From Alphaproteobacteria bacterium (GTDB lineage: Bacteria; Pseudomonadota; Alphaproteobacteria; Rs-D84), in the NCBI GenBank assembly GCA_017475605.1, contig JAFVFD010000002.1, forward strand, positions 1-32,000: a DNA stretch of 32,000 nt, given 5' to 3'. The notes below the pieces were generated by a model, which ran no database searches, was not told the origin of the DNA, and saw only the letters and a program-made list of their open reading frames with translations. Below are positions 1 through 15,273 of the stretch, piece by piece (the first letter of the stretch is position 1; each line of letters starts with the position of its first letter). The translations under genes were made by a program, and so were the position numbers.

Positions 1-3000
1 GGATTATGTAAGATAACAAGTTGTAAGGCAGGATCATACTATACAAGTACGAACAGTGGGAACACGAACACATGTACAGCGTGTGGTAATGGGACGTTCT
101 TGAATGGTGATGGACATACAACGACTAGTTGTACGGCATGTAGTACGACGCCAGGGTATCCGAGTGGATTTACGAGTGGTGGAACATTCAGCACGAGTCC
201 GACTAGTGCGGCGACTGCGAGCAGTGCGTGTCGGTATGTAGCGCCTGACAAGAGCACGCCGAGCAACTGTAGTGGTATCAGCAAGAACACGGTGAGTTAC
301 AGTGGCAGTGCATGGGGTACAAACTTCTATACGGTAACATCTGCGGCGGGTAAGTACATTACGTCGAACAACAATGCGAATCCGACATGTGCGGCGGCGG
401 GCAATGGGTACTATGTGGATGCGACGAATCAGACGGCACAGACACAGTGTCCGGCTGGGTATCGCAGTGGGTCTGACAATGGTCGCGATGCGAGCACAGA
501 CTGTTATGTGAACACTACGGCAGGAAGTTATGTAAAGACTGCGAAAGATGCTACACAGACACAGTGTCCGGCGAATAGTTACTGTGTTAGCACGAAAGTA
601 TACTATAACAGCACAGGTGGCAGTGCAGCATGTAGTGGTTTAGGTGGAGGCTTGTACGCGAATTCTGCGGCTGGGTCTGATGCGGCAACCGACTGCTATA
701 TCACGATTGCGGCGACGAAGTATCTGCCTGCACAATCGTCAACAGCGGTCAGCAACTGTACAGCGAACTACTATTGTCCGGGTGGCAACTTCTATTACAG
801 CAGTACCGCCACGAACCAAGGGCGCACCGCATGTGCATCGCCATACAGCAGCAGTGCGACAAGCAGTGATGATGCGAACGATTGCTATCTGACGACGACG
901 GCGGGTAAGTATGTAGCGACGGCGGGCGAGGGCGAAACGACATGTGCGTCAAACGGGTATTGTGCTGGGGGCAGTACGATATACAAGGGTGGCAGTGTAA
1001 GTGGTCGTTCAACGACTGGTGGGCGCACCGCGTGTGCATCACCGTACAGCAGTGCGGGAACAGGCCAAGATGATGCGAACGATTGCTATCTGACTACGAC
1101 GGCGGGCAAATATGTAGCGACGGCTGGTTCTGGGGAAACGGCATGTGCGGCTGGAGGTTATTGTGCTGGAGGCAGTACGATATACAAGGGTGGCAGTGTA
1201 AGTGGCCGTTCAACGACTGGTGGGCGCACAGGCTGTCCGACGGCGTATCCGAGCAGTGCAACAAGTAGCAGTAAGATAGGTCAGTGTTACTTGACGTTGA
1301 CTGCAGGAAAGCAGGTAGCGAGTGCAGGGGCAGGGTCGAGCAACTGTAGTGCTGGTCGGTATTGCACGAGTACTGGTAACATCTATTACAACACGGATGG
1401 GGGTACGGCGACATATACAGGTACACAATGTGTAGCGGGATCATACAGTACCGCGGGTGCAAGCAGCTGTACGGCATGCGGTAATGGTAAGACGAGTACG
1501 GCTGGTGCGACATCATCCAGTTCATGTACAGATTGTACTGCGATAAGTGGATCGGCTGGATGGGCGGCGACATCGTGGAATACCAACAACACGATGACCA
1601 ACCTGTGTACGACATCTGGGTGTCAAGCGAACTACTATAAGAGTGGTAACAGTTGTCCGTCATGTTCAAGTGGAACGAACAGCAAATACACCAAGAGTTC
1701 TGCTGGTACGACGACAGTGAACAACTGTTATCTGACGACGACGGCGGGTAAATATATAACATCTGCGAATGCAGGGACGGGGACAGAAAGTGCGTGTGCG
1801 GCAGGGAGTTACTGTCCTGGAAGTGTAACGATATACTACGGTGGGACCCATAGCAGCAGCCACTTGACGTATGGAGGAAGCACCGCATGTGCATCGCCAT
1901 ACAGCAGCAGTGCGGCGAGCAGTGATGATGCGAACGATTGCTATCTGACTACGACGGCGGGTAAGTATGTTGCGACGGCTGGCGCGGGCGAAACGACGTG
2001 TGCTGAGAACGGGTATTGCCCAGGTGGCAGCGACATTTACAAGGGTGGCAGTGTAACTGGTCGTGCAACGACTGGTGGGCGCACCGCGTGTACATCACCG
2101 TACAGCAGTGCGGCAACCGGCCAAGATGATGCGAACGATTGTTATTTGACTACAACAGCGACAAAGTATGTTGCAACCGCGGGCGCTGGGGAAACGACTT
2201 GTGTGGCGGGTGGTTATTGCGCGGGCGGCACAACGGTTTACAAGGGGGGCAGTGTCAGCGGTCGTGTAACGACTGGTGGTATGACGGTCTGTGCGGACAA
2301 TACATATTCTTCCGCGGGAGCATCATCTTGTACCGCATGCGGCACCGCGAACGGTTACCATAACACCGGTACGGCGGCCAGTGCACACGCAACCGTTGCA
2401 TCGTGTGTGGCAACATGTGATGCAGGACAGTATGTTGCGACGGCTGGTGCGGGCTGTATCAGTACGACTGCGGGTAATTACAGCACCGGCGGAACGGTTG
2501 CACAAGATGCAACATTATCACAAACACCATGTGCGGCGGGGACCTATGCGGCATCGGGTGGAATGTCCGCGTGTACACCTGCGGCCAAGGGGTATTATGT
2601 GTCTGGCACCGGTAAAACGGCGCAAAGCGCGTGTTATGGGGGCAAGTATCAGGATGAAACGGGCCAATCATCGTGTAAATCGTGTCCGGCGGCATATCCA
2701 TCGGGTAATTATGCGATAACATCAATTAACAGTTGTTATTACAGTTGCCTTGGCGGGACATATTATGCGAATGCGAACGATGGTAAATGTACCGATGTTG
2801 GAACGGGCTATTATGCGGCGCACCAGAATGTAAGTTATGGCAAGTCTGGAACCCGCACCGCGTGTCCGTCTGGCATGACAACGACCGGTTCGGGCTATGG
2901 CGCGGACGAGGCCGCCGACTGTGGCCGGGTTCTGAAAACCGATGGTACAAGTGTGCGCCTGCGTCAGACCAAGAAGACGACACCGTCGCTTAATGTAAAA

Positions 3001-3507
3001 ATAGGGGACACCACATATTATGGTAATATGTCATTGGTGGAACATAAGACGACGGCGGGTTCGACCAGGGCGTTGCGTGTAAAAAACAATGATGGTTCAT
3101 ACTATGTCTATGATGATACCGCACAGGAAAATCGTGGTTATCCATGGGATGCAACCGGGTTTAACATAAACACGAACGGCACGACATATACATACAGTGC
3201 GGCAAATATGACATGGGAAACGACATTCGCGTGGGGCAAGGTATCTGGTATAGCGGCATGTAATTCGACGGCGGGTTCATGGGCAGTTGCATCGCCGGAT
3301 GTCCAGGCAAACAGTGGTGGAACGCGTTGCTGGTGCAAAATGACCAATGCCGATGGCATTGATACATCCGCTGTGTCGTCCTGGGTGTTCTACGACACGA
3401 GCTCCTCGGCTGCCGTTTGTGCGTCTAACTGTGCTGGCATCTGCGGTAGCTACGTCCGTCGCTCTGCCGTCTTCCGGTCCGGCGTGTTTTCGGCCGTCGG
3501 CGATTGA
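1..3507 (+). CDS. Giant Cys/Thr/Ser/Gly-rich repeat protein, DGR target (5' end outside window, C-terminal VR)
   Basis: Frame 1 is open from base 1: GLCKITSCKAGSYYTS... precedes the first Met at 100, so the gene is 5'-partial (>1168 aa). It has CxxC / C-x-A-G-x-Y cysteine-rich modules (CTACG, SCPSCSSG) and the motif [DN]CY[LIV]xxxA[GT]xY at least 8 times. The last 45 codons are the DGR VR. Stop codon at 3505-3507. Confidence 0.9.
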   Translation, partial: GLCKITSCKAGSYYTSTNSGNTNTCTACGNGTFLNGDGHTTTSCTACSTTPGYPSGFTSGGTFSTSPTSAATASSACRYVAPDKSTPSNCSGISKNTVSYSGSAWGTNFYTVTSAAGKYITSNNNANPTCAAAGNGYYVDATNQTAQTQCPAGYRSGSDNGRDASTDCYVNTTAGSYVKTAKDATQTQCPANSYCVSTKVYYNSTGGSAACSGLGGGLYANSAAGSDAATDCYITIAATKYLPAQSSTAVSNCTANYYCPGGNFYYSSTATNQGRTACASPYSSSATSSDDANDCYLTTTAGKYVATAGEGETTCASNGYCAGGSTIYKGGSVSGRSTTGGRTACASPYSSAGTGQDDANDCYLTTTAGKYVATAGSGETACAAGGYCAGGSTIYKGGSVSGRSTTGGRTGCPTAYPSSATSSSKIGQCYLTLTAGKQVASAGAGSSNCSAGRYCTSTGNIYYNTDGGTATYTGTQCVAGSYSTAGASSCTACGNGKTSTAGATSSSSCTDCTAISGSAGWAATSWNTNNTMTNLCTTSGCQANYYKSGNSCPSCSSGTNSKYTKSSAGTTTVNNCYLTTTAGKYITSANAGTGTESACAAGSYCPGSVTIYYGGTHSSSHLTYGGSTACASPYSSSAASSDDANDCYLTTTAGKYVATAGAGETTCAENGYCPGGSDIYKGGSVTGRATTGGRTACTSPYSSAATGQDDANDCYLTTTATKYVATAGAGETTCVAGGYCAGGTTVYKGGSVSGRVTTGGMTVCADNTYSSAGASSCTACGTANGYHNTGTAASAHATVASCVATCDAGQYVATAGAGCISTTAGNYSTGGTVAQDATLSQTPCAAGTYAASGGMSACTPAAKGYYVSGTGKTAQSACYGGKYQDETGQSSCKSCPAAYPSGNYAITSINSCYYSCLGGTYYANANDGKCTDVGTGYYAAHQNVSYGKSGTRTACPSGMTTTGSGYGADEAADCGRVLKTDGTSVRLRQTKKTTPSLNVKIGDTTYYGNMSLVEHKTTAGSTRALRVKNNDGSYYVYDDTAQENRGYPWDATGFNINTNGTTYTYSAANMTWETTFAWGKVSGIAACNSTAGSWAVASPDVQANSGGTRCWCKMTNADGIDTSAVSSWVFYDTSSSAAVCASNCAGICGSYVRRSAVFRSGVFSAVGD
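821..1222 (+). repeat. Two tandem 201-bp (67-aa) intragenic repeats (GRTACASPYSS...DDANDCYLTTTAGKYVATAG.GET.C...GYCAGGSTIYKGGSVSGRSTTG)
   Basis: The string caccgc(a/g)tgtgcatc recurs at 825 and 1026 (period 201). The translated units are near identical. Confidence 0.85.
1877..2278 (+). repeat. Second pair of the same 201-bp repeat, offset 1056 bp from the first pair
   Basis: caccgcatgtgcatcg at 1881 and caccgcgtgtacatc at 2082. The units translate to G(S/R)TAC(A/T)SPYSS...DDANDCYLTTTA(G/T)KYVATAGAGETTC... Confidence 0.85.
3367..3501 (+). other. DGR variable region (VR)
   Basis: Hand alignment with the reverse complement of 5303-5437 gives 121/135 identities. All 14 mismatches (VR positions 3391-3470) lie opposite TR adenines. 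It is in frame as SAVSSWVFYDTSSSAAVCASNCAGICGSYVRRSAVFRSGVFSAVG. Confidence 0.95.
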
Positions 3508-3523
3508 TACATCGGCGCCGGGC

Positions 3524-3545
3524 CCCATGCGACCTGTCGCATGGG
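3524..3545. promoter_or_regulatory. GC-rich hairpin 23 nt downstream of VR (candidate DGR target-recognition hairpin/cruciform)
   Basis: cccatgcga (3524-3532), loop cctg (3533-3536), tcgcatggg (3537-3545): a 9-bp perfect stem with a 4-nt loop, seen directly in the sequence. Confidence 0.5.
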
Positions 3546-3565
3546 TGGGTAAAACGGAAACCGTA

Positions 3566-3600
3566 CCGCCACACACCGTGTGTGTGGCGGTATTATTTGT
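3566..3600 (+). terminator. Rho-independent terminator of the target gene
   Basis: ccgccacacac / cgt / gtgtgtggcgg forms an 11-bp stem, followed by tattatttgt. Confidence 0.6.
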
Positions 3601-3605
3601 CTTTG

Positions 3606-3657
3606 CTGCGTTCGCAATGACAAGTGGCTGGATTGTTTTGCTGCGCCCGCAATGACA
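3606..3657. repeat. Two partial (right-half) copies of the ...tcgcaatgaca palindromic element family
   Basis: tcgcaatgaca at 3612-3622 and ggattgttttgctgcgcccgcaatgaca at 3630-3657. Compare the right halves of the full elements at 5582-5657 and 10419-10588. Confidence 0.7.
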
Positions 3658-3669
3658 AAGAGGGGGGTG

Positions 3670-3698
3670 TTGCAATAGTAATAATTTGTTGCTATAAT
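3670..3698 (+). promoter_or_regulatory. Sigma70-like promoter for the small ORF (TTGCAA-17 nt-TATAAT)
   Basis: ttgcaa at 3670-3675, a 17-nt spacer, and tataat at 3693-3698. It lies 25 nt upstream of the ATG at 3723, which is preceded by a ggggggg RBS. Confidence 0.45.
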
Positions 3699-3722
3699 TA
3701 TAAAAAAGATTGGGGGGGCAAT

Positions 3723-4049
3723 ATGACGCTGGATGAAATAAGTAAATTAAACAACACCGAATGTCCGAAATTCGCATCGTTCGCGCGGGATAAGTTGCCA
3801 ATGCCAGGGAAAAAGAAACGTTTGGATGAAATATTAAACCAGGAAATAATGGTAACTGATTTTCGCATAAATAAATCAAAAAAGCAGGTCGGTGGCGAAT
3901 GTTTACAATTACAATTCGTGTTGGGTGGCGAAGTATGTGTTGCCTTTACCGGCAGTGTCGTTTTAATTGACCAAATTCAGTCAGCCGAAGGAAATATTCC
4001 GTTTGTTGCAACCGTTGTAAAAATAGATAAATATTATTCTTTTTCCTGA
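3723..4049 (+). CDS. Hypothetical 108-aa protein between VR and RT (possible non-Avd DGR accessory factor)
   Basis: The ATG at 3723 has a G-rich RBS at 3713-3719 and its own promoter. The upstream part of the 3624 ORF reads through repeat elements and is unlikely to be coding. The sequence MTLDEISKLNNTECPKF...CLQLQFVLGGEVCVAFTGSVVLIDQIQ... matches no family I recognise. Confidence 0.6.
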   Translation: MTLDEISKLNNTECPKFASFARDKLPMPGKKKRLDEILNQEIMVTDFRINKSKKQVGGECLQLQFVLGGEVCVAFTGSVVLIDQIQSAEGNIPFVATVVKIDKYYSFS

Positions 4050-4057
4050 TACGGTTT

Positions 4058-5092
4058 CTATTTTCGAAAAAGGTGTTTTCGTATAAAACGATTAACAAAG
4101 CGCGACGGGTGTGTTTGCTGAACTTTACGCATTAAACTGCGCCGGAAATTATAACTGCAGGCCCATTTAAGCCATCCATGCGCCGCCGCCAATTGACCCA
4201 TTGCATGTTCGGAACAATCATCGTGTTTGGCAATGTTTAATATGCGGCGGGTAAGTTTTGCTGTCCCGCGTCGTCGCATAAGAATAAAGCGCGGAAAATA
4301 TCGATAGCCAATAAAATTAATACCGCATTTTGTTGGCCTGATACTGTGTCGCGAAAACGTTAATTTTAATTCATCGTCTAGAAAGGTCTTGATTGCATCA
4401 AACGCCCGATGTAATTCGGCTTTGTCATTGGAAAAAAGACAAAAATCATCACAATACCGAATATATGCACGCCACCGTAATTTATGTTTAACAAAATAAT
4501 CTAATTCATTAAGGTATACATTACCCAACCATTGACTTGTTAAATTGCCGATCGGAATGTTTTTCCCATCACCACCAGAACGAATAATCTCGGACAGCAA
4601 ATCCATAATTCGCTTGTCGCTTATTTTGCGATGTAAAATTTTAATCATTATGGCATGGTCTAAACTTGGGTAAAACTTGTGTATGTCGCATTGCAGAACG
4701 TATTTATGTTTTCGCATCATTGTCATTGTGCGCATCGCTGCACCATGTAAGCCACGTCCAGGAATACAAGCGAAAGAATCTGGTATAAATATGCGCATCC
4801 ATATCGGCCCAAGGATGTTTATTAACGCATGATGCACAATGTGGTCTGGATAAAGTGGCAGTTCATAGATTTTTCGTTTCTTGGGTTCATATATCGTGAA
4901 AACATTGTATGGGGATGTATGGAATTGATTGTTCCCCAGGTCGCGTCGTAATTTTTCGATATACATATCGCGATGCTTAAGAAAATGCCGGGTTTGTGGT
5001 TTGCCAGCCTTGCTTTTTACCGCATTATTAACGGCAACGGCAAAGTTTTCATCTGATATAAAATCTTTCCACAGATTGTTGTATCTTTTCAT
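4058..5092 (-). CDS. DGR-type reverse transcriptase
   Basis: 344 aa. RT motifs: LQCDIHKFYPSLDH, IGNLTSQWLGNVYLNELD (the [I/L]GxxxSQ signature typical of DGR RTs), YIRYCDDF (YxDD box) and GINFIGYRYF. It is on the same strand as the TR and 210 nt downstream of it. Confidence 0.93.
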   Translation of the reverse strand: MKRYNNLWKDFISDENFAVAVNNAVKSKAGKPQTRHFLKHRDMYIEKLRRDLGNNQFHTSPYNVFTIYEPKKRKIYELPLYPDHIVHHALINILGPIWMRIFIPDSFACIPGRGLHGAAMRTMTMMRKHKYVLQCDIHKFYPSLDHAIMIKILHRKISDKRIMDLLSEIIRSGGDGKNIPIGNLTSQWLGNVYLNELDYFVKHKLRWRAYIRYCDDFCLFSNDKAELHRAFDAIKTFLDDELKLTFSRHSIRPTKCGINFIGYRYFPRFILMRRRGTAKLTRRILNIAKHDDCSEHAMGQLAAAHGWLKWACSYNFRRSLMRKVQQTHPSRFVNRFIRKHLFRK

Positions 5093-5437
5093 TGTTGTTT
5101 GAATATCCTGGGCGTTGGCAGAAAATATTTTCCACTACTAGCCCAGATATTCCCTGTGCATTGTATTCGTAAGAATACGTAATGTATTCAAACAGGTCGC
5201 GGTATCCCGCCTTTGATACATTCAAGGCAAACAAGTATATTACCCTTGTGTCCCACAGGTTGGCAAAACTTATACCTTTTGGCAAGTTTGTTGACCAAAG
5301 GAGCCGACGGCCGAAAACACGCCGGACCGGAAGTCGGCATAGTTACGGACGTTGTTACCGCAGTTGTTAGCACAGTTAGACGCACATTCGGCAGCCGAGG
5401 AGTTCGTGTTGTTGAACACCCAGGACGACACAGCGGA
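5093..5437 (-). ncRNA. Predicted DGR template RNA (TR plus ~210-nt spacer upstream of RT)
   Basis: By analogy with the Bordetella phage DGR, where TR plus the spacer RNA is the RT substrate. The spacer carries several hairpins: gaatatcctgggc(5101-5113)/gcccagatattc(5141-5152), the palindrome gaaaatattttc (5121-5132), and gtattc-gtaa-gaatac (5163-5178). Confidence 0.5.
5303..5437 (-). other. DGR template repeat (TR)
   Basis: It is the reverse complement of the VR with 14 differences, all at TR adenines. Read in the VR frame it has 23 A's, including 9 AAC codons (SAVSSWVFNNTNSSAAECASNCANNCGNNVRNYADFRSGVFSAVG). Confidence 0.95.
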
Positions 5438-5477
5438 AAACTGTACGCTGAACTGATACGATACCGAAACCGAATTG

Positions 5478-5486
5478 ATTATAACA
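5478..5486 (-). promoter_or_regulatory. Extended -10 element (TGtTATAAT) upstream of TR
   Basis: The minus strand reads tgttataat about 41 nt upstream of the TR 5' end. No good -35 element. Confidence 0.3.
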
Positions 5487-5509
5487 AGAAAACACAGGAA
5501 AAGAAGGCT

Positions 5510-5539
5510 AAAAAACCACCGCCATCGCGGTGGTTTTTT
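5510..5539. terminator. Bidirectional hairpin terminator (copy 1 of a 38-bp direct repeat)
   Basis: aaaaaa-ccaccgc-catc-gcggtgg-tttttt. The string aaaaaccaccgccatcgcggtggtttttt(t)gttgttatg recurs at 5693-5731. Confidence 0.55.
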
Positions 5540-5581
5540 GTTGTTATGTATAATACCACCATTATAGCAACGATTTTCTTT

Positions 5582-5692
5582 TGTCATTGCGAGGAGCCGT
5601 CAGGCGACGCGGCAATCCAGGGGGGGGTATGGATTGCTTCGCAGGCTCGCAATGACAAGGGTTGTGGATTGCCACGCTGCGCTGGCAATGAT
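5582..5692. repeat. 76-bp palindromic MITE/REP-like element (5582-5657) plus an extra right-half copy (5665-5692)
   Basis: The termini tgtcattgcgag...ctcgcaatgaca are reverse complements, with inner arms cgcggcaatc / gattgcttcgc. Confidence 0.8.
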
Positions 5693-5722
5693 AAAAACCA
5701 CCGCCATCGCGGTGGTTTTTTT
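5693..5722. terminator. Hairpin terminator, copy 2 of the direct repeat
   Basis: Same ccaccgc-catc-gcggtgg hairpin, flanked by A and T runs. Confidence 0.5.
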
Positions 5723-5775
5723 GTTGTTATGGTTGTTCTTCTTTCTTCGTCATCCCGGCGGTATTCTTCTTTCAT

Positions 5776-5909
5776 CGTCATCCCGGCGGATGCCGGGATC
5801 CAGTTTGCGAAAGCAAACTTGTTTGCGCGAACACAAACAATGTTCGTAATTACGAATAAACAAGTTGGTGCCCAAGTGGCACCAACTGGATACCGCAATT
5901 CTGCGGTAT
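5776..5909. repeat. Chain of six consecutive short hairpins/palindromes, starting with the cgtcatcccggcggatgccgggatccag element
   Basis: The six are atcccggc-ggat-gccgggat; gtttgc-gaaa-gcaaac (5803-5818); ttgtttg-N8-caaacaa (5819-5840); ttcgtaattacgaa (5843-5856); agttggtgcc-N6-ggcaccaact (5863-5888); ataccgca-attc-tgcggtat (5890-5909). Confidence 0.75.
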
Positions 5910-5979
5910 GACGAATCTCTGGAATTATCGCGTGAAAAGCAAACTTGTAATACCGATTAAATAATATTATTATTCAAGT

Positions 5980-6297
5980 ATGAAAAATGGTGGTTATGTT
6001 TATATAATGGCATCAAAACGTATGGGAACAATTTATATCGGTTCGACATCCGATTTAGTTGGGCGCGCGCTTGAACATAAAAACAAAGTTTATCCTAAAT
6101 CTTTTACCGCAAAATACGATTGCGATAAATTAGTGTATTATGAATATCATGAATCGCTGGAAAATATGGTAAAACGGGAAAGACAATTAAAAGAGTGGCC
6201 GCGTAATTGGAAGATAAAGTTAATCATAGATAAAAACACAGATTGGCACGATTTGTATTCTGAATTATTGGAAAGTTATGGGTATAAGTCGGAATAA
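5980..6297 (+). CDS. GIY-YIG nuclease-superfamily protein (UPF0213/YhbQ-like)
   Basis: GGYVYIMASKRMGTIYIGSTSDLVGRALEHK...RERQLKEW.RNWKIKLI matches the GIY...YIG...R...E...K.W pattern of small GIY-YIG proteins. Confidence 0.85.
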   Translation: MKNGGYVYIMASKRMGTIYIGSTSDLVGRALEHKNKVYPKSFTAKYDCDKLVYYEYHESLENMVKRERQLKEWPRNWKIKLIIDKNTDWHDLYSELLESYGYKSE

Positions 6298-6314
6298 CAA
6301 GTCGCCGTTGGCGA

Positions 6315-6342
6315 CTGGATCCCGGCATCCGCCGGGATGACG
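6315..6342. repeat. 28-bp element, perfect inverted copy of 5776-5803
   Basis: ctggatcccggcatccgccgggatgacg is the exact reverse complement of cgtcatcccggcggatgccgggatccag at 5776-5803. Confidence 0.9.
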
Positions 6343-6365
6343 AGTGAAAGGTCGTCATAATGACA

Positions 6366-6404
6366 AAACGAAAAACGCGCCATTGGCGCGTTTTTCGTTT
6401 TTTA
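6366..6404. terminator. Strong bidirectional terminator between the GIY-YIG gene and rne
   Basis: aaacgaaaaacgcgcc / att / ggcgcgtttttcgttt forms a 16-bp stem with a following T run. Confidence 0.8.
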
Positions 6405-6450: not shown

Positions 6451-8247
6451 TTAACCCACCAATTTTTGCCAAATTGTTTGTTTGCGTTTCGGTTGGGGTT
6501 TGCGTTTGCGACGCGGCGCATTCATTGTTGTTTTCTTGGCATCAACATGTTGCGCATTTTTCTTTTTCGCATCGGTTGATGGCGCATGCGCGTCCAACAA
6601 ATCGTCGGTTTTGTTCTGTTCCGGCGCAACGCGTTGAATTGAATACTGATCAATGTTCATCATGCTGTCGTCGCCGACAATAACGATTTCAGTTTCAAAT
6701 TCGCGTTCCATATCCGCCAGTTCTGCGCGCTTGTTATTAAGCAGGTAAATCGCCACATCGGTCGGAACCGTCATGATAATTTTTTGCGCCGATTTCGCCA
6801 ATAACTTTTCTTGCAAATGACGGAACATAATAATCGCCGCCGTCTGAATTGATGGCACCACGCCGGCACCCATACAATGAGGGCACGCGATATAGGACGA
6901 TTCAATGAAACTGCTGCGCAGGCGTTGACGCGACAACATCAACACACCAAACGCGTTGATTTTGGCAACCTGGGTGCGGGCGCGGTCGCGTTTCATAACT
7001 TCGCGCATTTTCATTTCCAGTTTGCGATTGTTGCGTTCTTCTTCCATATCGATAAAGTCAATCGCAACAATTCCCGCCAAATCACGCAGGCGCAACTGTA
7101 ATGCGATTTCTTCGGCCGCCTCTAAATTAGTGTTAAGTGCGGTCTGTTCGATATCTTTTTCCTTAATCGCGCGGGATGAATTAACGTCAATTGTAACCAT
7201 GGCTTCGGTTTGGTTAATAACAATCGAACCGCCCGATGGCAATATGACATAGGGGCCATGTAAACCTTCCAGTTGCTTTTCAACACCGGCCTTGACCATA
7301 ATAGGAACCGCTGGATCGCGATAGTTTACCAACTGTTTGCGTGGCGCGCGACCATACAATTGCTGGAAATAAGTTTTCGCGGCATCAAATGCTTCGTCGC
7401 CCTGGATAGTCAGGACATCTTCTTTGTCAGAAAGGAAGTCGCGTACCACACGACGCAACAGGGAATCTTCGGTATGAATTGTAACCGGTGCGACCGATTC
7501 CAATGTGGTCTTGCGAATTTCGTTCCACAAATTCACCAGGTAATCGTAATCGGCGGCAATATCTTCGGGTTTAGCATCCATGGCGGCGGTACGCAAAACA
7601 ACCGTCATGCCCTTGGGTATCTTTAAACCATGTAATATTTCACGCAGGCGCGCGCGTTCCGATTTATCGGAAATCTTTTTGGAAATACCATAACTGTTGC
7701 GTTTGCGCGAATTCGGCATCAACACCGCAAAACGACCAGCCAACGACAGATAGGTTGTCATGGACGCGCCTTTCTGGCCACGTTCTTCCTTGACCCCCTG
7801 GACCAGCAAGATTTGTTTTGGCTTTATAACGTCCTGAATCTTGAATTCGTGAACGCGTTTTGTAAATTCTTTGTTATCTTCGCCGGCACTGTGATCGTCG
7901 TATTCGGCAACCTCGTCATTTTCGTCGTCGGGGTCGTCGTCGTCATCTACGATGTTGGCATGTGCCAATTCAATCAATTTCTTTTTCTGTTCAGGGGTTA
8001 TTTGGTAATAATCTGGGTGTATTTCAGAAAACGGCAAAAATCCGTTCTTGCCAGTGCCGTAATCAACAAATGCCGCCTGAAGCGATGGTTCGACGCGAAT
8101 AACCTTGGCCAGATAAATGTTCCCTTTTATCTGGGGCTTAGTAGTTGTTTCAACGTCAAAATCAGAAACCCGGTTCGTCGCCGTATCCACGACAACAACA
8201 CGTGTTTCCTCCGGGTGGACTGCATCCACATATATTCTTTTTGACAT
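6451..8247 (-). CDS. rne: Ribonuclease E/G family endoribonuclease
   Basis: N-terminus MSKRIYVDAVHPEETRVVVVD...GNIYLAKVIRVEPSLQAAFVDYG (S1 domain), followed by the catalytic core. It has an acidic insertion (DDDDDPDDENDE) and a short basic C-terminal tail. Confidence 0.85.
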   Translation of the reverse strand: MSKRIYVDAVHPEETRVVVVDTATNRVSDFDVETTTKPQIKGNIYLAKVIRVEPSLQAAFVDYGTGKNGFLPFSEIHPDYYQITPEQKKKLIELAHANIVDDDDDPDDENDEVAEYDDHSAGEDNKEFTKRVHEFKIQDVIKPKQILLVQGVKEERGQKGASMTTYLSLAGRFAVLMPNSRKRNSYGISKKISDKSERARLREILHGLKIPKGMTVVLRTAAMDAKPEDIAADYDYLVNLWNEIRKTTLESVAPVTIHTEDSLLRRVVRDFLSDKEDVLTIQGDEAFDAAKTYFQQLYGRAPRKQLVNYRDPAVPIMVKAGVEKQLEGLHGPYVILPSGGSIVINQTEAMVTIDVNSSRAIKEKDIEQTALNTNLEAAEEIALQLRLRDLAGIVAIDFIDMEEERNNRKLEMKMREVMKRDRARTQVAKINAFGVLMLSRQRLRSSFIESSYIACPHCMGAGVVPSIQTAAIIMFRHLQEKLLAKSAQKIIMTVPTDVAIYLLNNKRAELADMEREFETEIVIVGDDSMMNIDQYSIQRVAPEQNKTDDLLDAHAPSTDAKKKNAQHVDAKKTTMNAPRRKRKPQPKRKQTIWQKLVG

Positions 8248-8463
8248 TTTGTAATCCTTTTATTTTGGGGTCGTATGCCACGAGAATCCGTCCCCATGGG
8301 GCGTCCAAGCCCATGCCAAGGGATTGCGCCACGATAATCATCAGCGTCATTCGGATTTCAGAAAATAGTGATAACAAAAACATTTGCCATTACCCTATAT
8401 CATCATACGACGGTTTTTAGGTTAGCACGTCGAATATCATATTGGCAAGTAATTTTAATATGA

Positions 8464-10588: not shown

Positions 10589-10840
10589 ATGACGACACCC
10601 CCAAAAAACAAAAAATTAAAAAACAAAAAATCGGCGAATTATACCGTAAATACAATGTGTTGTGCGAAATAAAAGTTGCCGAATTTAAACGGTGGTTTAA
10701 AATCAGCCACTTAATTACCTCCATTTTATTCGGTTTTCCTGGGCTTTGTCAACGGCAAAAATGGCCGAATCAAAACCACCGTTTTGAACCGGCCACCGCA
10801 TGAATACTGGGCTTGTGAACAAAAGGAAAGGGGGATATTT

Positions 10841-11848
10841 ATGAGTTTAAGAATGTTGCAGTTTGTGGCATGTGTGTTTTGGTGTGGAATAATGTTTGTA
10901 AATACTGGATGCGCAGTAACCTATACTAGTGCTACAACAAAGTGCGTTAAAGGATCTTCGGGGACGGGAACATGTTATCGGTGTGCCGGCATGACATATA
11001 GTAATACTGGTGATTGTACCGCCGAAATTGATCAGGCCGGTGGTTGTACAAATACGACCGTGCAAACAAAATCTACGGGGACTGTATTAACAGGGTACAT
11101 CGGTAGTCGTTCCTATTTGTATTTTTGTGCCAGTGATGGCTGGCATCGTTGTAATGGCAGTACGGGCACAGGTTGGGTTGATTTAGCAGATTTGGGTTCA
11201 ACAGTGGCTGAGATAGAATCATATGGTGCCTGGTCCAATGCATGCCATGTAACCTTTAGCCAACAAAACTATGGCGGTAATGCGGGTGCAAAATATAAAT
11301 ACAGATGCCGAGCAAACACTTATCCTGTTGCGCGTTCTGGTTACAGCAACAGCGACCTGGATTCAACAGACGGTTCCTGGCTGCAATCACAAAACGCAAC
11401 CTCGTTATCAATAGGTGGGGTTGGTAATGTACCAAATTACACATGTACATCATGTCCGGCTAATTCGACCAGTGATGCGGGGGCCGTTCTTATTGATGAT
11501 TGTAAATGCGATTCTGGTTATTATAAATCAGGTTCTGCATGTGCGGCATGTCCAAGTGGTACATATTTAGATTATGTTTGGTCCGGCAACGAAAGTAGCG
11601 GTTGTGTTGGGAAAAACTTTGGTCCGGAAACACTTGGCGCAGAACCGGTGTCAGATACAGGTTCTACCAGTATAACTTCTTGTTACATACGTTCTACTGA
11701 TTGGATTTCATATCGTGCATCGATGATAACTGGTTCTTTGTCATCAATTTATTATGAAGACGATAAGGGTCGGTTTACCACATCTTCGGATTGTTATTAC
11801 AGCACCAGTGCCGCGAATACATATTCAAATGTATGTCCAGCAAACTAG
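10841..11848 (+). CDS. Secreted Cys-rich protein, paralog of the next gene and related in motif style to the DGR target
   Basis: ATG at 10841 after the aaaggaaaggggg RBS. Signal peptide MSLRMLQFVACVFWCGIMFVNTGCA. Motifs: CYRCAG, YTCTSCPANSTS, CKCDSGYYKSGSACAACPSGTY and C-terminal SSDCYY. Confidence 0.8.
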   Translation: MSLRMLQFVACVFWCGIMFVNTGCAVTYTSATTKCVKGSSGTGTCYRCAGMTYSNTGDCTAEIDQAGGCTNTTVQTKSTGTVLTGYIGSRSYLYFCASDGWHRCNGSTGTGWVDLADLGSTVAEIESYGAWSNACHVTFSQQNYGGNAGAKYKYRCRANTYPVARSGYSNSDLDSTDGSWLQSQNATSLSIGGVGNVPNYTCTSCPANSTSDAGAVLIDDCKCDSGYYKSGSACAACPSGTYLDYVWSGNESSGCVGKNFGPETLGAEPVSDTGSTSITSCYIRSTDWISYRASMITGSLSSIYYEDDKGRFTTSSDCYYSTSAANTYSNVCPAN

Positions 11849-11871
11849 AAAGATAAATAGATGGGGGTAAT

Positions 11872-12831
11872 GTGAAAAATTTGAAATTAATATTTGCTTT
11901 AATCGCGCTGGGTATTATGTATGCACCATGTGCAGCAGATGCAGTAGGTACCGCATATCATAGTGGATACCCAATCTGTTTAGTAGATGATAACAATGTT
12001 TGTTGGCGGTGCGCTGGCACACCGGACCCAACAAATAACTGTACCGGGGGTTTCAATGGTGCCAGTTGCACTAACAGTACATCGGGTGTAAAACCCATTG
12101 GAACGGTATATTACAAGACTGGGGGCAGGTTTGAATGTACCAGTTCCGGATGGCAAGAAATAAACACAGAAATAGAAGAAGAGTGTGATGAAAAAGAAAC
12201 ATACCTTTGGACCCCCGCAACGGCCCTTGGAACAGAGCATTCCCCAGGTGCCCTGGTAAATGTTGCCTGTGCCGATTGTGACTGTAACGGATATAATGTA
12301 TCTGCATCACACAGTCCAGGATATGTCCATTATCAAGAAGTAGAGGTCGCGTGTTTGCCGGGATGGTATAACCCACGAATTGGTGGTGGGTTATCACAAG
12401 GGATTTACCTTTGTGATGAATGTCCAAAAGGGGCAATATGCCCAGGTGGTTATGAACCACCGGTTTGCGGGCCTGGCGAATGTGGCGATCCGCTGACCGC
12501 TGAATGCACCCAATGCCCGAATACATCAATTTACAGCAACAGCAGTTTAACATCGTTTGCATCGGTTTTTGTTTCATGGCCGGGCAGTTCCAATCCTAAT
12601 AAATTCCTTTTGCGGAACCCCCTTAGTTCGCATGATGGCTTGGATATGGTATCTCTGCGGGTTGCTGTAGATATGGGATTGCTTGTGGTTAGTTCTGATA
12701 ATGATGCGTTTGTAACAACAAAATCTATTGCAGGTGGGACAACCGTTGATTCGTGTTATATAAAAGGTGAAACAATCTATTATGATGCGTCTGGGGCATT
12801 TAAATTTTCATCTGATTGTTACTATAAATAA
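11872..12831 (+). CDS. Secreted Cys-rich protein, tandem paralog
   Basis: GTG start after the ggggg RBS. Signal peptide MKNLKLIFALIALGIMYAPCAADA. It shares CWRCAG...C(T/A)S(S/D)GW and C-terminal ...SSDCYYK with the preceding gene. Confidence 0.8.
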   Translation: MKNLKLIFALIALGIMYAPCAADAVGTAYHSGYPICLVDDNNVCWRCAGTPDPTNNCTGGFNGASCTNSTSGVKPIGTVYYKTGGRFECTSSGWQEINTEIEEECDEKETYLWTPATALGTEHSPGALVNVACADCDCNGYNVSASHSPGYVHYQEVEVACLPGWYNPRIGGGLSQGIYLCDECPKGAICPGGYEPPVCGPGECGDPLTAECTQCPNTSIYSNSSLTSFASVFVSWPGSSNPNKFLLRNPLSSHDGLDMVSLRVAVDMGLLVVSSDNDAFVTTKSIAGGTTVDSCYIKGETIYYDASGAFKFSSDCYYK

Positions 12832-14916: not shown

Positions 14917-15273
14917 ATGTACGATAAAAATAATGTTTTTGCGAAAATTATTCGTGGTGAAATACCATCAAAACGTATTTATGAAAATGCCTATGCGCTG
15001 TCTTTCTATGATATAGACCCGGCGGCAACAATACACGCGCTGGTCATTCCGCGCGGGGAATATGAAAATATGCTAGATTTTTCGGCGAACGCATCGGATG
15101 ATGAAAAATTAGGCTTTTTTGATTGCTTGAATCAAACGGCGGCAAAATTGGGTGTGTCCGATTGTAATATCTTTGCCAACACTGGAAATGGTGTCTATAT
15201 TCGTCAAAGTGTGCCACATTTTCATATGCACATTGTTGCGGGCGAAAAAATCAAGGAAATAACGACACTGTAA
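14917..15273 (+). CDS. HIT-family (histidine triad) nucleotide hydrolase
   Basis: VFAKIIRGEIPS...HALVIPRG...VPHFHMHIV (HxHxHxx motif). The ATG at 14917 follows a ggggg RBS; the alternative start is 14905. Confidence 0.85.
   Translation: MYDKNNVFAKIIRGEIPSKRIYENAYALSFYDIDPAATIHALVIPRGEYENMLDFSANASDDEKLGFFDCLNQTAAKLGVSDCNIFANTGNGVYIRQSVPHFHMHIVAGEKIKEITTL

Follow-up and report, generated by a model that had tools for sequence, protein, structure and literature searches.

An active diversity-generating retroelement from a gut alphaproteobacterium rewrites a cysteine-rich terminal domain outside the recognisable C-type-lectin families

Identification of the retroelement

A diversity-generating retroelement (DGR) was identified in a 32,000-nt stretch of an alphaproteobacterial genome (lineage Rs-D84; GenBank assembly GCA_017475605.1, contig JAFVFD010000002.1, positions 1 to 32,000 of the forward strand), hereafter called the window. 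Taken as a whole, the data are probably best explained by an active DGR of an uncultured ruminant-gut alphaproteobacterium that diversifies a new domain with a fold other than C-type lectin (CLec). As a system, the DGR is of a known kind, and what is new is its scaffold for the variable residues and its candidate accessory gene. To our knowledge, every DGR variable protein of solved structure has the CLec fold, and the domain described here, if the reading is correct, would be the first scaffold other than CLec with good support for variation on the scale of a DGR.

The locus was recognised as a DGR by a Brt-like reverse transcriptase (RT), by mismatches between a template repeat (TR) and a variable repeat (VR) that are confined to adenines, and by a VR at the target gene's 3' end that is followed by a hairpin. 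The two 135-nt repeats, 90% identical, were located at 3367..3501 on the plus strand and 5303..5437 on the minus strand. All 14 mismatches between them fell on adenines of the minus-strand copy, which holds 23 adenines, and therefore 5303-5437 was assigned as TR and 3367-3501 as VR. TR precedes the start of the RT by 210 nt and is on the same strand as the RT. The homology between the repeats stops at GGC, one codon (GAT) before the stop codon of the target gene and not two as given in the first-pass annotation of this DNA, which had been made from the sequence and its open reading frames (ORFs). The TR-form VR peptide reported there was the same as the one translated here, and its C-x3-C-x3-C triad was likewise found on adenine-free codons (TGT, TGT, and TGC) among AAC positions. 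Thirteen VR codons can be diversified (nine AAC plus ACG, GAA, TAT, and GAC in TR), and the TR adenines allow 1.2e13 possible proteins with no stop codons. VR and TR have a GC-rich 3' end in common, 31 nt free of adenine, which is a putative initiation of mutagenic homing (IMH)-like element.

A GC-rich hairpin with a perfect 9-bp stem and a 4-nt loop, CTGT, starts 23 nt after VR (3524..3545, plus strand). It stands at the position of the DGR target-recognition hairpin/cruciform. A 12-bp hairpin followed by a T-rich tract (3565..3591, plus strand) is likely the terminator of the target gene. Folding of the hairpin region downstream of VR gave z=-6.0.

The RT (344 aa; 4058..5092, minus strand) matched RVT_1 and phrog_1423 (8e-94), contained the motifs IGNLTSQ at residue 181 and YCDD at residue 213, and was 32% identical to the Brt of BPP-1 over 320 aa (E=4e-52). 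The element resembles the BPP-1 DGR (mtd-avd-TR-brt) in the [LIV]GxxxSQ and YxDD motifs of this RT, in repeats of about 135 nt with adenine-only mismatches, in the placement of VR at the target gene's extreme 3' end, in a downstream GC-rich hairpin with a 4-nt loop, and in the dominance of AAC codons with a repertoire of about 1e13. It differs from BPP-1 in that the target gene is encoded on one strand and TR and RT on the other, the target domain has no relation to Mtd, and the RT is accompanied not by Avd but by an unrelated 108-aa protein, ORF108. The BPP-1 DGR resides in a phage, whereas that of the window is chromosomal; a scan of viral contigs returned no relatives and hence no viral-contig support for a phage origin.

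Differences between assemblies of the same strain

Four other contigs were recovered with the exact RT sequence as the query, and two of them (L001 and L002) belong to the same strain as the window. Over positions 1-6328, the window differed from L001/L002 at 12 sites, all within VR (3416-3464), and 11 of these were TR-adenine positions. The TR was identical in all assemblies compared. Because the same-strain assemblies differ only inside VR, the DGR is active, and VR has been rewritten since the assembled populations diverged. The VR difference at a non-adenine position (3423) is G in the window and in TR and C in L001/L002, a synonymous change of GCG to GCC.

The VR-bearing domain and its family

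The VR forms the end of a domain of about 110 aa (3151..3504, plus strand) that belongs to an unannotated family with a near-invariant W, G, C, C-W-C, W, C-x3-C-x3-C, and R. With residues numbered along 3115-3504, the invariant or near-invariant positions are W34, G45, C49, C72-W73-C74, W90, C102, C106, C110, and R121. No match to the domain was obtained in NCBIfam or PHROGs, and none in Pfam at the gathering score. An exhaustive hidden Markov model (HMM) search with three aligned copies as the seed, clustered at 50% identity, gave 993 representative clusters at E<=1e-3 and 251 at E<=1e-10.

For the most part, the family consists of secreted proteins 110-250 aa in length. Across the 151 top hits, the domain ended no more than 5 residues from the C-terminus in 128, the protein was shorter than 200 aa in 57, and several copies were present in 42; signal-peptide-like N-termini were found by a crude hydropathy rule in 80 of 114 members. 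The sources were metagenome-assembled genomes (MAGs) of Alphaproteobacteria or Rickettsiales from rumen, termite gut, and faeces, and the names were all 'hypothetical protein'. The first-pass annotation had proposed a new scaffold on a giant adhesin-like surface protein. The domain is indeed unannotated and outside the recognisable CLec families, but it occurs mostly on small secreted proteins, and the scaffold is not specific to giant adhesins. Homologs were found both with and without adjacent DGRs, as that annotation had advised looking for: there are five further DGR loci, and most members examined on long contigs have no RT within 6-10 kb.

Variability was calculated from a 102-sequence alignment of the family. 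Column entropy exceeded 3.1 bits exactly at the TR-adenine codons (93-96, 101, 105, 108, 109, 112, 113, 116, 117, and 119) and was near zero at the six Cys, W90, and R121. The residues K, E, Q, M, and W made up 4% at ten variable columns as against 17.5% at other variable surface columns, which served as the control. The variable columns were dominated by Y, N, S, D, R, and G, as NNC codons derived from AAC give.

Three giant members, P0017 (4750 aa), P0020 (6218 aa), and P0030 (2382 aa), contain 5-7 internal VR-type domains together with Flg_new repeats, and P0017 also has a C-terminal Endonuclease_1 domain. In the termite-gut Rickettsiales MAG Pcl387_bin15, at least four small VR-domain paralogs (L006, L007, L010, and L011) have the 3' flank TAATTAAAAATGGGGGGACAAATCCGAGC in common and are distinguished chiefly by their variable codons; no RT was present within 6 kb of them. 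Trans targeting is suggested by this retention of the flank together with the concentration of differences at variable codons, and the paralogs may be remote (trans) targets of a DGR. A remote paralog set among housekeeping genes, P0185 (L015), was considered as a trans target of the DGR of L048 in the same MAG; it is 74% identical with 13 non-adenine mismatches and is therefore not a current target of that TR.

Predicted fold and comparison with known folds

The domain alone was modelled by AlphaFold2 (AF2) from the 102-sequence alignment with a predicted local distance difference test (pLDDT) score of 88.7 and a predicted template modelling score of 0.82. Strands were placed at residues 24-28, 33-38, 41-50, 71-79, and 90-95, and after them two helices, at 99-116 and 118-126. 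A model of the last 220 aa of the target protein had the same topology, with pLDDT 97-98 in the domain. The confidently predicted fold is a five-stranded antiparallel sheet with two C-terminal helices (β5-α2), in which a helix face and a loop bear the variable residues; VR (residues 85-129) would comprise the last strand, the loop, and both helices. Evidence independent of AF2 came from the periodicity of the entropy, which peaked at exactly 100 degrees over residues 99-121 with 5 times the mean power (permutation p=0.008) and at 165 degrees in the strands at 33-50. The TR-adenine indicator likewise showed the 100-degree helical periodicity (p=0.003).

The first-pass annotation had seen no VR signature of the FGE or DUF1566 style, and profile and structure searches of the kind that it had proposed agreed in not placing the domain in the CLec, FGE-sulfatase, or DUF1566 families. 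Pfam FGE-sulfatase, DUF1566, and Lectin_C were matched by none of the 102 members at E<=0.1, hhalign against Mtd gave a probability of 0.06%, and Foldseek against PDB and BFVD gave a best match of E about 1 and a template modelling (TM) score of at most 0.26, CLec being absent among the matches listed. These results support the conclusion that VR does not lie in a recognisable CLec, FGE, or DUF1566 domain. Wu et al. (2018) divided VRs into the classes CLec1-3, Ig1-2, and UVR1-6, where CLec1-3 take in Pfam FGE-sulfatase and DUF1566. The domain is set apart from Ig1 and Ig2 by two results alone, namely that no Pfam Ig or FN3 match was found and that VR is predicted to be helical.

Several traits are common to this domain and the CLec-fold variable proteins Mtd, TvpA, AvpA, and TaqVP: a VR at the C-terminus with invariant residues on either side, AAY-encoded variable residues set among invariant ones of the scaffold, and a domain that is either fused to very diverse N-terminal parts or stands alone in small secreted proteins. 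The CLec topology consists of paired terminal strands β1/β5, two roughly perpendicular helices between them, and a β2-β3-β4-β4' sheet carrying VR (PMC5006420). In CLec proteins, the variable residues are on strands β3-β4' and loops, whereas in the window domain they are predicted on a helix face and a loop of a β5-α2 fold; the window domain also has six invariant Cys, unlike CLec variable proteins, and no sequence, profile, or Foldseek similarity to them.

The possibility that the domain is a highly divergent CLec fold, with an AF2 model that is wrong or misread, draws on the literature. Annotated VRs were found to be 'systematically' CLec, and VR domains of unknown type were expected to be CLec variants (Roux et al. 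2021; PMC8144416), while the CLec fold of AvpA was not predictable in silico (PMC5006420). The C-terminal VR, with a conserved W at its start and F-R at its end, also loosely recalls the CLec W...GFR. Against this stand two AF2 models (pLDDT 89-98) with the order β-β-β-β-β-α-α instead of the CLec order β1-α1-α2-β2-β3-β4-β4'-β5, the helical periodicity of the variability, and the negative Pfam, hhalign, and Foldseek results given above. On balance, a divergent CLec fold is regarded as very unlikely.

Descent from a known family was considered as well. META (PF03724, HslJ-like) scored 15.2 bits in the window, below its gathering score of 24 bits, and matched 18 of the 102 members weakly (best E=2.5e-4) over about 45 residues of the beta part only, around 'SGxAxCNxxxGxY'. 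The domain might accordingly be a META derivative with an added C-terminal helical VR extension, that is, a new branch of a known family. This seems improbable, as no match reached the gathering score, VR lies outside the matched segment, Foldseek gave no significant match, and the family profile found no PDB sequence at E<=10, a search in which META structures would be included.

In the AF2 model, the first helix bears C102, C106, and C110 on a single side, a strand has C72 and C74 on a single face, and C49 is in the neighbouring strand. Three disulfides probably staple the helix Cys (i/i+4/i+8) to the sheet Cys (C and C-x-C) in this model. Alternatively, the six invariant Cys, arranged as CxC plus Cx3Cx3C, might bind a metal or cluster that holds the helix by coordination, and the formation of disulfides in the periplasm would be less certain in the hosts, which are probably anaerobes. 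The signal peptides across the family and a stalk with 71 Cys are typical of extracytoplasmic disulfide proteins, and helix Cys at i/i+4/i+8 facing strand Cys at i/i+2 in the model would suit pairwise staples better than a compact cluster, which makes coordination a rather remote alternative to the disulfides. In the twin-Cx3C small Tim proteins, Cys at i/i+4 staple a helix to its partner, and binding through one helix face is a known engineering principle. We know of no homology between such Tim-like helix-display scaffolds and the VR domain, whose helix would be stapled to a beta-sheet and is rewritten by a retroelement.

The target protein and its Cys-rich stalk

The 3' part of the target gene occupies 1..3507 of the plus strand, where frame 1 is open from the window edge for 1168 codons and closes with TGA at 3505-3507. 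The first-pass annotation had correctly described a protein of more than 1168 aa that is truncated by the window edge and built from T, S, G, A, C, Y, and N; these residues make up 75% of the 1168, of which 71 are Cys. The motif [DN]CY[LIV]xxxA[GT]xY, said there to occur at least 8 times, was counted 7 times in its strict form, the eighth copy being a looser one (QCYLTLTAGKQ). The CxxC count was also 7.

The 5' end was recovered from assembly L001, giving a full gene of about 1474 codons with a 34-codon scaffold gap included. The full-length N-terminus, which had been missing, reads MANFWEKISKTKSVWTRAVFGAILLFGVIGASNSFA before and AGYSC after an S-F-A cleavage-type site and is signal-peptide-like, with a basic n-region and a hydrophobic core. 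Window base 1 coincides with the end of L002 and with an N-gap in L001 (about 14993-15095), all inside the Cys-repeat gene. Collapse of repeats at this break is likely, and the true length of the target is therefore uncertain, because two independent contigs end and a scaffold gap falls at one point.

The stalk (1..2922, plus strand) is rich in Cys and in T, S, G, and A, and includes three near-identical 67-aa units with 4 Cys each (ACASPYSS...DCYLTTTAGKY...GGRT). Pfam searches with the whole 1168-aa protein or the full-length stalk gave zero matches; matches appeared only with pieces of 240-300 aa as queries. The best was Ephrin_rec_like (PF07699) at 2590..2736 on the plus strand (E=3.9e-5), borderline at 23.8 bits against a gathering score of 23.1. 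This match covered residues 64-112 of the piece 2401-3120; the same model scored 18.3 bits, below threshold, in 1801-2700 and did not match elsewhere. Weaker TNFR_c6 and NCD3G matches were also obtained with pieces of the stalk, which had no relative in NCBIfam, PHROGs, or PDB sequence searches. The short homologs P0011-P0013 also bear PF07699. The furin- or VSP-like repeats of the first-pass annotation were thus roughly right in kind, with Ephrin_rec_like reaching the gathering score and the other two remaining weaker. Like Ephrin_rec_like, TNFR, furin-like, and Giardia VSP repeats, the stalk is built of CxxC and C..G.YC modules. It differs from them in that most of it matches no Pfam model, the 67-aa units are lineage-specific, and the protein is bacterial with a DGR VR domain appended, the repeats themselves not being diversified.

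The stretch of about 150 aa before VR that had been left unrecognised consists of two units, a 65-aa module and the beta-sheet half of the VR domain. The module (2923..3117, plus strand; 'GRVL...TTPSLNV...YGNM...YVYDD') was modelled by AF2 as beta-hairpins with low confidence (pLDDT 45-60). A search with the last 220 aa of the target found only 16 proteins, 14 of which (P0003-P0016) matched this module alone. These non-DGR Cys-rich paralogs carry it at their extreme C-terminus, ending at GRVL..LRS.KKTTPSLNV.I....YGNM....Y.V.DDSM, and therefore the module is the normal C-terminus of a Cys-rich alphaproteobacterial protein family. The window protein has a further domain appended after the module, and P0002 (128 aa) is made up of that VR domain and nothing else. 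Amicyanin matches in the module region (E=0.3-2) were dismissed as chance.

The likeness of the stalk to VSP- and Ephrin-type Cys repeats bears on the purpose of the diversification. With the fold as predicted, variation could serve evasion (antigenic variation or receptor masking against antibodies, phages, or protist grazers) in the manner of Giardia VSP switching, and both the abundance of phages and protists where these organisms live (gut, rumen, and termite) and the presence of several paralogs per genome fit this idea. However, variation is limited to one compact patch of 13 codons, with all the rest of the very large protein constant, and this would serve escape from recognition poorly; the variable sites are enriched in Y, N, S, D, R, and G, as binding sites typically are; and every DGR target studied by experiment is a binder (Mtd-pertactin, PMC2408619). 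Evasion is considered unlikely, and ligand binding is preferred.

ORF108 and related DGR loci

ORF108 (108 aa; 3723..4049, plus strand) lies between VR and RT and accompanies the RT in every related DGR examined. More than 120 homologs were found (51-87% identity), nearly all of 108-110 aa, with an isoelectric point of about 8. It had no match in Pfam, NCBIfam, PHROGs, or PDB. Avd, a bAvd-like four-helix bundle, is present in 74% of DGRs. It is not universal in these elements (PMC5758913), and the accessory genes listed by Wu et al. (2018) are Avd, HRDC, MSL, and CH1. None of the ORFs in 3500-6400 matched bAvd (PF22296), a model that the Avd of BPP-1 itself matches at 7e-36, and the hhalign probability of ORF108 against bAvd was 0.05%. 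The ORF at 5213-5911 and other ORFs overlapping TR were rejected as accessory genes, having no family matches and overlapping repeats.

Five other DGR loci diversify the same domain as that of the window, and ORF108 adjoins the RT in all six cassettes (the window, L005, L047/L048, L050, L051, and L052). In L005, a rumen MAG with a target of more than 2130 aa, 15 of the 16 mismatches were at TR adenines and the ORF108 homolog (7810-8133) is beside the RT. The order in L047/L048 is 142-aa target - TR - ORF108 - RT, with the homolog at 8001-8327 and all mismatches at TR adenines (14/14 and 13/13, respectively). The same order was found in L050, L051, and L052, where the homolog lies at 5001-5333 beside the RT and TR adenines accounted for 14/14, 13/15, and 14/14 mismatches, respectively. 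The window cassette is a rearrangement of this usual order, with TR-RT inverted relative to the target and ORF108. ORF108 is a candidate accessory factor distinct from Avd.

In the public MAG annotation, the RT and ORF108 (MBR2285846.1/MBR2285845.1; IJ866_00050/IJ866_00045) are both named 'hypothetical protein', and because of these labels the DGR is not annotated as such. Full-text searches for papers on DGRs together with AlphaFold, disulfides, or helices, survey supplements aside, turned up nothing on the scaffold or ORF108; the family may sit among the unannotated clusters of DGR survey supplements.

Proposed mechanism and its implications

In the proposed mechanism, TR (5303-5437, minus strand) would be transcribed and then reverse-transcribed by the adjacent RT with adenine-specific errors, and the mutagenised cDNA would take the place of VR (3367-3501) at the target gene's 3' end. 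The adenine-free 3' end of VR/TR and the downstream hairpin would guide homing, with ORF108 probably filling the accessory role held elsewhere by Avd. The target is envisaged as a Sec-exported protein of about 1474 aa with an Ephrin-receptor/TNFR-like Cys stalk, the 65-aa module, and the terminal domain of about 110 aa. The 13 adenine-bearing codons map in the model to the strand-helix loop and, at a spacing of 3-4 residues, to the solvent face of the helix. The outcome would be a single contiguous surface in about 1e13 versions, and this surface, at the protein's distal tip, most likely binds a ligand.

Several points weigh against this reading, in addition to the published expectation of CLec variants and the precedent of AvpA. 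The fold is a predicted one and not a solved structure, and the six Cys are all invariant, which makes covariation uninformative about their pairing. The role proposed for ORF108 follows from gene neighbourhood, and in the window ORF108 is on the opposite strand to TR-RT. Placement on the surface by a diderm, as well as ligand binding, is something that we infer. Finally, many family members sit among housekeeping genes, and most of those examined on long contigs have no RT within 6-10 kb.

We lean, with some reservation, towards a broader view in which these cassettes represent a distinct DGR lineage of gut, rumen, and termite Alphaproteobacteria, with two of the four parts non-canonical: a new stapled-helix fold, and a 108-aa protein replacing Avd. 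The domain would be deployed on small secreted, giant-stalk, and multi-copy giant proteins, and may help these bacteria, whose genomes are reduced, to attach to hosts, either protists or animals.

If there is a second scaffold of unrelated structure, variation on the scale of a DGR would be shown to be independent of the CLec fold. Such a scaffold would also offer protein engineers a compact (about 110 aa), disulfide-stapled, helix-displaying library scaffold that tolerates about 1e13 sequences, together with the retroelement that goes with it; in E. coli, continuous evolution is now being carried out with reprogrammed DGRs (bioRxiv 10.64898/2026.07.21.739853). The Avd-less cassette with its conserved 108-aa partner would give a direct route to testing which accessory functions mutagenic retrohoming needs, and the family would give a likely role to about 1000 clusters of 'hypothetical' proteins in poorly known gut Alphaproteobacteria.

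Other elements around the locus

An ORF at 5980-6297 encodes a small GIY-YIG nuclease (Pfam 2.7e-14) and lies between perfect 30-nt inverted repeats at 5775-5804 and 6314-6343. The assemblies diverge by an indel immediately after this unit, at about 6345, which suggests that it is a mobile or recombining mini-element beside the DGR. The 29-nt palindrome AAAAACCACCGCCATCGCGGTGGTTTTTT occurs twice (5511-5539 and 5693-5721), and short repeats of the GCAATGACAA type are scattered around TR and downstream of the target gene (3602-3658 and 5673-5694). Both kinds of repeat are REP-like intergenic elements that yield spurious ORFs. Farther along the window, two adjacent unannotated ORFs of 354 and 319 aa were found at 10784-12831 on the plus strand, and the 319-aa ORF weakly matched DUF7631, a family also present in the Cys-rich homolog P0016.

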